This document shows positions 59,184-61,727 of a stretch of DNA of 64,000 bases, piece after piece (within the stretch, counting starts at the first letter, position 1; each line of letters opens with the position of its first letter). This DNA comes from Giardia intestinalis (taxonomy: Eukaryota), in assembly GCA_000002435.2 (NCBI GenBank), contig CM018791.1. One strand, written 5' to 3'. The notes under the pieces are model-generated. The model made no database searches. It had not been told where the DNA came from and saw nothing but the letters and a program-made list of their open reading frames with translations. The position numbers were made by a program, and so were the translations under genes.

Positions 59184-61727
59184 CTATGAATATCCTCTCT
59201 TCCATTGCGCAAGGCCTAAACCTGTGCATTTGGCTTGTGTCCCTGTGAATTGCACAACCTCTGGAAAGCTTATGGAGTCTTCTATTAAGCCTAGTAGCCG
59301 GTCAGTAAAGTCTGACAGGCGCTGTCTCTGCATAGAGTATGACCCGCACGTATCTGTCGAAAAGCTAAACAGCTGGGACAAGAGACTTGTAAACAGATCG
59401 ACATGCCTCCAGTACCGTTTGCTGGGCAAGGATACCTCCACGGTCCTTTCACCGTCCACTCGATGTACACTGAGATCGGAAGCCTTCACAGAGGTTCCAA
59501 TTATCATGTACCATATGCACGACGCTATTCCCGAGTAGTCCGGCTCATATAGCCAGTGCTTTTCTACTATTGGACACGGCGTCACAACAGACATGCTTGT
59601 ATAGTGAAACTGAACTGGAACGTCGTTAAGTGTGAAGAGGGATGCATCAATAGCTTTGCCAAAGTCGCATGCCACGGGTACCAGGAATCCACTTTCGTCA
59701 GCAAAGCCAAAGTCAGCTTCTAACTTTGGAGTGACGTGCTTTTCTGTCTTAGAGGAGCAGCTCTGTGTTTCGTGCTTGACGGTAGGACACGCTGCAACAC
59801 GCTGATCCACATTTGTCTTTCCCTTTTCTTCCTTGCCCTTTAGAAAGCTCAAGAGTGTGGGATCTGTAGAGATTGTGATTAGCCAGTTATCTACTTTAAT
59901 GTCTGTATGCACAATATTCGCTTCGTGGAACGTCTTTACTGTCTTGATCATCAAGTATGAAATCCATAAAATAACATTTTCAGGAAGACAAGTCAAGCCT
60001 CGCTCAACCCTGTCATAGCACTGTTTGCATAGCTCGAACAGAGTTACGCCAGGGATGTACTCCATAACAAAGGCCCCCAGGCCTTGGTTATTGACTATTG
60101 ACGCGATAAATCGCGTATAGAGGCAGTCACTCAGAGAGTCTGCCAGCCGTAGGGTGAGCGCAGATAAGCTGTATATTTCACGTAGGAAGGACGTGCTTAT
60201 TGCACAAACCGCGTGCTCGCCTATTTCAACAGAGATAGAGTCTTTTTTCCTGGTAAAGAACTTCACAGCTACTTTTACCAAATGGCCAGGCCGTGCAGAG
60301 TGCAATGCATCAGCTGCAAAGACCTTTCCAAATGCACCGGCGCCTAGAAGCTCTGTTAGTGTCAGAAGTATCTTGCAGTCTGGTCTGCTACATGAGCTTT
60401 CCTCTTCTCGCGTCAGATTCCTTTGAAGATCTTCAAATGTGGTTTCAGTGCTACCTCCTGTAGTACTATCTCCTTTAGTGTTCTGGTCTGTGTCTTCTTC
60501 ATGTCCATTCTCGTCCCAGCAAGGATCTAGCTTGGGGTACACGACTGGGCATGTAGCATCCATAATTCTAGATACCCGATAAGGGCAGATCATAAGGGTA
60601 GTTCCACTCTCAGGATTAGTAGGGAACACATCCACCTCTTCCACAAATGTCAGCACAATTCGGTTTCTTTGAAGAGATGGAGCCATGTCAACAAGGGCAA
60701 AGTAGAACGCTCGCGGAATGTGATACGGCTCTATTATGTTGCTGATGACTAGGTCATTTTGGGTTGGGCCTTGACGAGATGTATACAGGAGAATCTGGCA
60801 CCGCGGCGAAAGAGTATAGACCATGCGGGATATTATGTGGGGGTCATTCGCCAGTTGGGAGTAGGGATTCAGATTCTCCAGCTGTTTTCGTGCAATTAGG
60901 CGGCCTATAAAGCACATGTGTAGATCCAGGAGATGCTGCTCCTCGGGAGAGATAAAACTATTTGCCGTTTCACTATATGTTAGGATAAATATGGGCAGGG
61001 TCTTACAATGGATCTTTGGATGACTTGATCCTTGCCCACTTGGCTCTGACGGAGAGCTGTACGACTCGTGGTCTACATATAGCTCTGCTGGGATATTCGT
61101 TATGGAGAGGTTCTGGGGAGATGTCTCGGCTGTCCATACAAAGAATCTAGAGCCGTTGCTGGTGCTGGTGATCGCCTTGAGGCGCCGGATAGACGCCTGG
61201 AACGCCTTCTTTGCTCGAGCACTAGTGCAGTTGTTATAGCCAAGAATATAGTAGTGCATCGCTCGGCTTTTGTCACGGACCTGGAACTCATAGTAGACCC
61301 CTGCCTGACAATACAGTTCAGGAGCTTTGCGGCCGATGTTGTGCGCATCATAGTATGCAATGATGCCATCCTGGTTGGAGAATAGGCATTGGTAAGCTAG
61401 GGCGAGCACCACAACTCGTCTATCGTTTAACAGCTCCGGGTGTTTCTGGGCATAGCTTATGGTCAATCTACACAGGTCCTGGAGAAGCAGTTGGAGCGGT
61501 CTCGTGGGTCGAAGCTGGAATAGTTTCTGGATCTCAAAGAACAGCGATATCCGCTCCTGCATAGATGCCTCCACTTTTTGAGGATTGTCTAGTGTTTGAC
61601 CTGACTGTAGTCTCATGATGCGCGCCACTCCCTCCCTCAGCATCGTTATTTTTCCATCAGCAAGGCCCCGTTTCAGCTCTGGCTCTCCACTCGACGGAGC
61701 TGACTCACAGCCCAAAGCTGTCTCCAT
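59184..61727 (-). CDS. BUB1: BUB1-type spindle-checkpoint kinase (Mad3/BUB1 homology region plus C-terminal BUB1 kinase domain)
   Basis: N-terminal LLNDRRVVVLALAY...IIAYYDAHNIGRKAPELYCQAGVYYEFQVRDKSRAMHYYILG parallels the human BUB1 block NDPRFISYCLKFAEY...FFEFLYNHGIGTLSSPLYIAWAGHLEAQGELQHASAVLQRG. Kinase motifs LLGAGAFGKVF, VAVKF, IVHTDIKVDNWLI (BUB1 has HGDIKPDNFIL), ACDFGKAIDASLF (BUB1 IDLGQSIDMKLF), and KHWLYEPDYSGIASCIWYMIIG (BUB1 [22 protein letters not shown]). Confidence 0.75.
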   Translation of the reverse strand: METALGCESAPSSGEPELKRGLADGKITMLREGVARIMRLQSGQTLDNPQKVEASMQERISLFFEIQKLFQLRPTRPLQLLLQDLCRLTISYAQKHPELLNDRRVVVLALAYQCLFSNQDGIIAYYDAHNIGRKAPELYCQAGVYYEFQVRDKSRAMHYYILGYNNCTSARAKKAFQASIRRLKAITSTSNGSRFFVWTAETSPQNLSITNIPAELYVDHESYSSPSEPSGQGSSHPKIHCKTLPIFILTYSETANSFISPEEQHLLDLHMCFIGRLIARKQLENLNPYSQLANDPHIISRMVYTLSPRCQILLYTSRQGPTQNDLVISNIIEPYHIPRAFYFALVDMAPSLQRNRIVLTFVEEVDVFPTNPESGTTLMICPYRVSRIMDATCPVVYPKLDPCWDENGHEEDTDQNTKGDSTTGGSTETTFEDLQRNLTREEESSCSRPDCKILLTLTELLGAGAFGKVFAADALHSARPGHLVKVAVKFFTRKKDSISVEIGEHAVCAISTSFLREIYSLSALTLRLADSLSDCLYTRFIASIVNNQGLGAFVMEYIPGVTLFELCKQCYDRVERGLTCLPENVILWISYLMIKTVKTFHEANIVHTDIKVDNWLITISTDPTLLSFLKGKEEKGKTNVDQRVAACPTVKHETQSCSSKTEKHVTPKLEADFGFADESGFLVPVACDFGKAIDASLFTLNDVPVQFHYTSMSVVTPCPIVEKHWLYEPDYSGIASCIWYMIIGTSVKASDLSVHRVDGERTVEVSLPSKRYWRHVDLFTSLLSQLFSFSTDTCGSYSMQRQRLSDFTDRLLGLIEDSISFPEVVQFTGTQAKCTGLGLAQWKRGYS

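Follow-up and report, generated by a model that had tools for sequence, protein, structure and literature searches.

We analysed a window of Giardia intestinalis DNA (64,000 nucleotides of contig CM018791.1, assembly GCA_000002435.2) and, within it, the gene GL50803_90575. By its identity and domain architecture, an N-terminal TPR domain followed by a C-terminal BUB1-type kinase domain, its product is Giardia's single BUB1/Mad3-family (MadBub) protein. The name MadBub denotes the family in its unduplicated state, from which BUB1 and BUBR1/Mad3 arose in other lineages. As a single-copy MadBub, GL50803_90575 is therefore co-orthologous to BUB1 and to BUBR1/Mad3, although the features it keeps are those of the BUB1 type. 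The explanation that we consider best, with a probability of roughly 0.85, is that Giardia has one MadBub in which the BUB1-type half was kept and the Mad3-type half lost, and whose kinase is active and serves chromosome segregation. A previous reading of the stretch from its letters alone (here the sequence-only reading) had proposed a BUB1 orthologue at this place, and its interpretation is supported overall.

Identity of GL50803_90575

The gene is a single uninterrupted open reading frame (ORF) of 847 amino acids on the minus strand, running from an ATG at 61727 to a stop at 59184, exactly where the sequence-only reading had placed it. Exact-sequence look-up showed the product to be identical to XP_001706330.1, KAE8302795.1 and UniProt A8BLN2 of G. 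intestinalis ATCC 50803 (WB C6), and the supplement to the Giardia kinome paper of 2011 (Manning 2011) prints the identical sequence as GL50803_90575. Public databases name A8BLN2/XP_001706330.1 only "Kinase", and the closest database proteins are also Giardia "Kinase" entries, with 91% identity in strain P15 and 77% in assemblage B.

Published accounts of this protein disagree. The 2011 kinome paper reported BUB as absent from excavates and put the protein in the class "Other-Unique", and Vicente and Cande (2014), who called BUB1 absent, detected no more than Mad2, Bub3 and Mps1 in Giardia. In contrast, Supplementary Data 4 of Salas-Leiva et al. (2021), for which hidden Markov models (HMMs) of orthologous groups were used, lists GL50803_90575 as the only Giardia MadBub, with GL50581_185, GMRT_14180, SS50377_13685 and TPC1_12820 as its orthologues; the same authors describe MadBub as conserved even in diplomonads.

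Two separate domains point to the BUB1/Mad3 family

With the single query, the Pfam family Pkinase was matched at E=8e-9, and the six best phmmer matches in the PDB were all BUB1 kinase domains, followed by CLK3. A family profile built from the seven-member Giardia-lineage family matched the human BUB1 kinase in the PDB at E=1.1e-7. When this profile was searched exhaustively against 1.84 billion representative proteins, just 416 matches were obtained at E<=1e-3, and nearly all of the best 150 of them carried the BUB1 signatures H-G-D-[IL]-K-x-D-N and DFGR[AS]ID. The 42 top full-length matches contained Pkinase without exception, Mad3_BUB1_I in 38 cases and Mad3_BUB1_II in 24 (Pfam), and the N-terminal and kinase profiles of the Giardia family each matched separately in 79 of 121 full-length relatives. 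Word-indexed homologue searches with the single sequence or the family profile returned just six close Giardia-lineage proteins and no named BUB1 relatives; with a 44-sequence MadBub profile, the same kind of search gave only generic kinases beyond these six.

Direct reading of the translation located the Gly-loop LGAGAFGKV (461-469), VAVK with Lys489, and DFGKAID (688-694); the last of these and HTDIKVDNW are the two motifs quoted in the sequence-only reading, and both are present as quoted. All 13 residues that are invariant in an alignment of 42 MadBub kinases are found in the Giardia protein (G462, G464, V469, K489, E517, H601, H607, D609, K611, N614, D688, D694 and D730), as are the family-specific W725, G733, A735, KRYW (770-773) and F779..LL783. 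In addition, the family-invariant Ser711 aligns opposite the T-S of the human BUB1 activation segment, which we take to contain the BUB1 autophosphorylation site. Since all 13 MadBub-invariant residues are kept, the product is probably an active kinase, and it had been scored "Active (K,D,D present)" by Manning (2011).

The N-terminal domain gave a concordant result. Mad3_BUB1_I (PF08311) was matched in all seven family members, at best with E=4.8e-10, and P0021, the nearest relative outside the seven-sequence family, scored 44.7 bits, above the cut-off. In the PDB, the family profile matched Schizosaccharomyces pombe Mad3 within the mitotic checkpoint complex (4aez_C, 1.9e-5), the TPR domain of yeast Bub1 (3esl, 2.5e-4) and that of human BUB1 (4a1g, 1.2e-3).

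Structure prediction extended these matches to the fold. A full-length AlphaFold2 (AF2) model from a 7-sequence alignment was poor, with a predicted local distance difference test (pLDDT) score of 43.5 and the TPR domain as its only usable part, a confident helical array over residues 25 to 185; the prediction was repeated with 44 sequences. In the second model, pLDDT reached 82-93 in the TPR domain and 75-96 across most of the kinase. Foldseek searches with the TPR domain of the first model returned BUBR1, BUB1 or Mad3 TPR domains as all of the 12 best PDB matches (TM 0.55-0.76), with generic TPR and 14-3-3 folds ranking below. With the kinase domain of the second model, the five best PDB matches were human BUB1 and BubR1 kinase domains (E 1.8e-12 to 2e-10), and the next was CLK1 at 6e-8, an E-value gap of more than 100-fold. 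The nearest relatives of the kinase by sequence, profile and predicted fold are thus BUB1 and BubR1 and no other kinase family, as the sequence-only reading had assigned it, and the N-terminal TPR similarity that it had noticed likewise holds under both profile and fold search.

The HTD catalytic loop is a recurring variant

In the catalytic loop IVHTDIKVDNW, Thr608 stands at the position of the Arg of HRD and the Gly of BUB1, and it is invariant across the seven-member family. The sequence-only reading had described this loop as divergent. The threonine is indeed there, but the divergence is not unusual: the middle position of HxD in 141 BUB1-type relatives is Gly in 104, Cys and Ala in 11 each, Thr in 4 and Arg in 3, and HTD is not exceptional because Thr recurs in these four. 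HTD is thus a minor non-RD variant that recurs in the family, and calling it strikingly divergent would go too far. Nor does HTD, by what is generally known of kinases, predict a loss of activity. One distant relative departs further, P0006 (JGI metagenome 3300010163, L001 5001-7790), where Asn replaces the His of HxD (VNTDIK), the activation segment bears large insertions and the precomputed Pfam annotation gives Mad3_BUB1_I without Pkinase; it may be the degenerating kinase of an uncultured diplomonad-like organism.

The region between the two domains

The linker contains a candidate degenerate GLEBS (Bub3-binding) motif, KIHCKTLPIFIL-TYSETANSFISPEEQHLLDL, with the core Y251...S259-P-E-E-Q in a GLEBS-like part that spans residues 250 to 269. 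The string S-[PF]-E-E-Q-x-L is common to Giardia, P0005 (DLEYPQISDVSFEEQRLL) and P0021, and the Giardia site is similar to the GLEBS consensus that we derived from 31 relatives, L-x-Y-P...E-x-S-F-E-E-[IL]-R.

Further along, residues 285 to 385 form a block beginning NDPHIISRMVYTLSPR that, together with the kinase N-lobe, is the most conserved part of the protein, with 87-98% identity among Giardia assemblages compared to 30-67% for two low-complexity inserts. Outside the seven-sequence family, the block was matched in P0021 alone. There is a weak likeness between NDPHIISRMVYTLSPR and the first helix of the N-terminal extension (CDII) of the BUB1 kinase, and AF2 predicted helices and strands in the kinase-extension region, with pLDDT 45-68. 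The acidic linker that follows evolves fast, with 39-66% identity among assemblages versus 89-99% in the adjoining kinase N-lobe, and pLDDT is below 50. Within the kinase, the insertion between catalytic loop and DFG (30-67% identity among Giardia assemblages, pLDDT 32-46) is mostly missing in P0005; the family consensus indicates that BUB1 kinases generally have an insert at this position and that the one in Giardia is longer.

Motifs of the Mad3 type were sought by regular-expression scan. No KEN box occurs in the whole protein, unlike many relatives, which have KEN within their first 120 amino acids. The sole ABBA-like string, ISLFFE (60-65), lies within a TPR helix, and no RxxL string makes a credible D-box, as all are situated in folded or conserved blocks. 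Scans for MELT and CMI also gave nothing credible, the CMI/CDI scan being a crude one. The absence of KEN, ABBA and D-box fits a Giardia without Cdc20 and the anaphase-promoting complex (APC/C).

Table 1. Features of GL50803_90575, with positions in the window
Feature	Residues	Position	Strand	Basis
MadBub (BUB1-type) kinase, complete gene	847 aa	59184..61727	-	ORF list, exact-sequence look-up, Manning 2011 supplement
N-terminal all-helical TPR domain (Mad3/BUB1 homology region 1)	25-188	61164..61655	-	Pfam PF08311, profile, AF2, Foldseek
Candidate degenerate GLEBS (Bub3-binding) motif	238-269	60921..61016	-	conservation, HMM, hhalign
Strongly conserved middle block	285-385	60573..60875	-	region-wise identity, hhalign
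Acidic low-complexity linker, fast-evolving	386-452	60372..60572	-	assemblage identity, pLDDT
BUB1-type protein kinase domain	453-835	59223..60371	-	Pfam Pkinase, PDB BUB1 matches, 13 invariant residues, Foldseek
Catalytic loop IVHTDIKVDNW; Thr608 at HRD-Arg/BUB1-Gly position	605-615	59883..59915	-	direct reading
Poorly conserved insertion between catalytic loop and DFG	618-683	59679..59876	-	assemblage identity, pLDDT, family consensus

Comparison with BUB1 and with other MadBub proteins

Human and yeast BUB1 (Mad3_BUB1_I TPR, GLEBS, CDII extension and active kinase; PDB 4QPM, 4R8Q, 6F7B, 4A1G and 3ESL) served as the reference, and they are the best sequence and fold matches of the Giardia protein. 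Both have the order TPR, linker with a GLEBS motif or, in Giardia, a GLEBS-like candidate, and C-terminal kinase. The likeness extends to the non-RD loop H-x-D-[IL]-K-x-D-N-[FW], to DxG-x-[SA]-ID in place of the plain DFG context, to an insert between catalytic loop and DFG, to the W..(Y)..DY.G.A and KRYW motifs and to the intact catalytic residues. The Giardia protein differs in having Thr instead of Gly in HxD, a GLEBS candidate that is degenerate (S-P-E-E-Q versus E-x-S-F-E-E-[IL]-R), a much longer catalytic-loop insert of about 65 amino acids, and the lineage-specific block of residues 285 to 385. Moreover, no CMI/CDI (Mad1-binding), ABBA or KEN motifs were recognised in it, and three known partners of BUB1, namely Knl1, Mad1 and Sgo, have not been found in Giardia.

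One gene per genome and the combination of TPR and kinase are shared with the single-copy MadBubs of other protists (Dictyostelium Q54CV5 and, among metamonads, Giardia muris GMRT_14180, Spironucleus SS50377_13685 and Carpediemonas J8273_3529); Supplementary Data 4 of Salas-Leiva et al. (2021) records the orthology. The SPEEQ motif is shared with the nearest relatives, P0005, P0006 and P0021, and so are DFGKA[IV]D and a catalytic loop with HTD or NTD. A canonical MadBub differs in carrying the KEN1, KEN2, ABBA and D-box elements for APC/C-Cdc20 inhibition, none of which the Giardia protein has. Going by its description, kinetoplastid KKT14, a divergent Bub1/BubR1-like kinetochore protein (PMC11286163), offers a parallel as a highly divergent Bub1-family protein long unrecognised in an "excavate" parasite and having a Bub3-like partner; set beside that description, the Giardia protein differs in being recognisable from sequence profiles alone.

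Neighbouring genes

GL50803_90575 lies among genes for an ankyrin/coiled-coil protein, an MFS transporter, a small kinase and a GDSL lipase and near Cys-rich ORFs, a neighbourhood that fits a compact Giardia chromosome. The ankyrin-repeat protein (56642-59212, minus strand; repeats at residues 44-184) has a long, coiled-coil-like tail rich in Ser and Glu. As called mechanically, its ORF has a TTG start and shares 29 nucleotides with the stop end of the MadBub gene; the true start is probably a downstream ATG (MDQTIW...). On the plus strand, 53459-56653 holds a GDSL-lipase-like gene, a 296-amino-acid protein kinase and an MFS transporter, tightly packed with gaps of 5-60 nucleotides. The interval 40383-53465 (minus strand) is one ORF of 4360 amino acids, without a Pfam family at E<=1e-3, and is one among Giardia's giant uncharacterised proteins. 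Several short Cys-rich (CxxC) ORFs lie at 61973-63299 (minus strand), one with a C-terminal hydrophobic segment, in a stretch whose GC of 0.42 is below that of the remaining window. They may be fragments of genes for variant-specific surface proteins or high-cysteine membrane proteins; the one member of the group that was scanned, a 104-amino-acid ORF, had no Pfam match.

Discussion

The checkpoint in which this kinase would act is reduced, as expected by the sequence-only reading, which had spoken of a streamlined one. Supplementary Data 4 of Salas-Leiva et al. (2021) lists Bub3, BugZ, Mad2, Mps1, Plk, Trip13, p31comet, Aurora and INCENP as present in Giardia, and Cdc20, all APC/C subunits, Mad1, Knl1, Zwint, Sgo, Survivin and Borealin as absent; the study also reports that canonical checkpoint motifs are missing from most metamonad homologues. 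The same table gives Nuf2, Spc24 and Spc25 for Giardia without Ndc80, which Spironucleus and Trepomonas have; Giardia Ndc80 could be divergent and undetected. Giardia Bub3 is nuclear and kinetochore-associated and needed for segregation; its knockdown leads to missegregation, and its localisation depends on Mps1. Giardia does not arrest with microtubule poisons, and its Mad2 is found on caudal axonemes, away from kinetochores.

Tromer et al. (2016) reported that GLEBS, CMI, CDII and kinase go with the kinetochore-acting BUB paralogue, and KEN and D-box with the APC/C-inhibiting MAD paralogue. By this division, it is the BUB feature set that Giardia's one gene has kept, in keeping with the loss of both Cdc20 and APC/C. 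What was retained comprises the TPR domain, the candidate GLEBS-like motif, the conserved pre-kinase segment, perhaps a kinase-activating extension, and a kinase domain with all of its catalytic residues; the KEN boxes, ABBA and D-box of the Mad3/BUBR1 type, which inhibit APC/C-Cdc20, have been lost. We infer an active non-RD kinase in which HTD would act like the HGD usual in the family, and which may bind Giardia Bub3 (GL50803_102890) through the degenerate GLEBS. Working at centromeres or kinetochores, the kinase would serve segregation or error correction, phosphorylating histone H2A for example, and not a canonical checkpoint that delays anaphase.

Several observations weigh against this explanation. 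In the query alone, Mad3_BUB1_I was matched with E=0.0023 and 18.3 bits, short of the 31.4-bit cut-off. The kinase fold result is supportive without being fully independent, because the 44-sequence alignment was made of BUB1 relatives. In the middle region, where the sequence-only reading would have had a GLEBS motif looked for, the conserved S-[PF]-E-E-Q-x-L site was found but no score reached significance: an HMM of 31 GLEBS windows reached E=0.05 at the corresponding site of P0005, and hhalign picked out Y251-H265 (YSETANSFISPEEQH) as the best GLEBS match of the whole linker with P=0.06-0.1. Pfam PF08171 (GLEBS, core E-x-S-F-E-E-[IL]-R-A) had no match in the query, and a PDB sequence search with residues 225-300 alone found none; as a GLEBS motif, residues 238-269 are a conserved candidate, and the evidence is suggestive only. 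The likeness of the middle block to the kinase extension is similarly weak: when hhalign compared residues 270-452 with a profile built from 117 BUB1 extensions, the best match placed N294-R309 on 'D..lr..LL..L.p' with P=0.016. BUB1's usual upstream receptor and downstream reader are missing, since no Knl1 or Sgo is known in Giardia, and because Giardia Mad2 is away from kinetochores, MadBub could also have been repurposed. Finally, we found no functional work on GL50803_90575 in the literature, the only mentions being a gene list for quantitative PCR and an unrelated grant-number match.

A rival reading is that GL50803_90575 is a true MadBub by descent that has become independent of Bub3 and left the kinetochores, for example for flagellar axonemes or spindle poles, its TPR domain and middle block binding lineage-specific partners. 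The many missing partners (Knl1, Mad1, Cdc20, APC/C and Sgo), the lack of arrest with microtubule poisons and the axonemal Mad2 would all accord with it, as would a GLEBS match that is only suggestive and a most conserved non-kinase segment that has no counterpart beyond the lineage except in P0021. However, Bub3 has been retained in Giardia, is associated with nucleus and kinetochore and is needed for segregation, S-[PF]-E-E-Q stands exactly at the place expected of a GLEBS and is conserved across the lineage, and the catalytic and family-specific kinase residues are strongly constrained. We regard such a repurposing as improbable, though it deserves to be kept in mind.

Two other readings we rejected. 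The cautious class of the 2011 kinome would make the protein an "Other-Unique" kinase confined to this lineage, with a superficial or convergent likeness to BUB1, and the modest single-sequence scores and an overall identity of 14-22% to other MadBubs could be taken that way; chance similarity is nevertheless largely refuted by the agreement of two separate domains, each of which points to the MadBub family, and by an exhaustive search that yielded nearly only BUB1-type kinases, and the protein also has family-specific motifs in addition to those of the generic kinase core (DxG-x-[SA]-ID, W725..D730, KRYW and F..LL); we give this reading very little credence. Less credible still is a pseudokinase scaffold of the BUBR1/Mad3 type that would inhibit an unrecognised Cdc20-like activator. 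S. pombe Mad3 is the best TPR match of the N-terminal profile, and the top fold matches include structures of BubR1, but all catalytic residues are intact, KEN box, ABBA motif and a credible D-box are missing, and neither Cdc20 nor APC/C is found in Giardia.

Going beyond a single MadBub of the BUB1 type that acts in segregation, the degenerate GLEBS and residues 285-385 might constitute a new targeting or regulatory interface that replaces the links to Knl1 and Mad1. Bub3 and MadBub would then form a kinase pathway independent of APC/C, Cdc20, Mad1 and Knl1, with the BUB1 kinase arm as a free-standing controller of segregation; this we put forward tentatively, as a possibility that is more doubtful than probable.

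In novelty the finding is ordinary, since Salas-Leiva et al. (2021) already give the assignment. Our evidence backs this little-noticed entry in a supplementary table, and it corrects two widely cited papers, the 2011 kinome and the 2014 study of Mad2, Bub3 and Mps1. The identification helps to set right the public annotation "Kinase"; it refines what was already known and is no discovery. For the biology of Giardia, it shows that of the ancestral MadBub the BUB1 arm, with its kinase, was kept, and the APC/C-inhibitory (Mad3) arm lost. Giardia MadBub is thus a natural test case for the role of BUB1-Bub3 without an anaphase-promoting complex, and it is a candidate for the partner behind the described Bub3 phenotypes.

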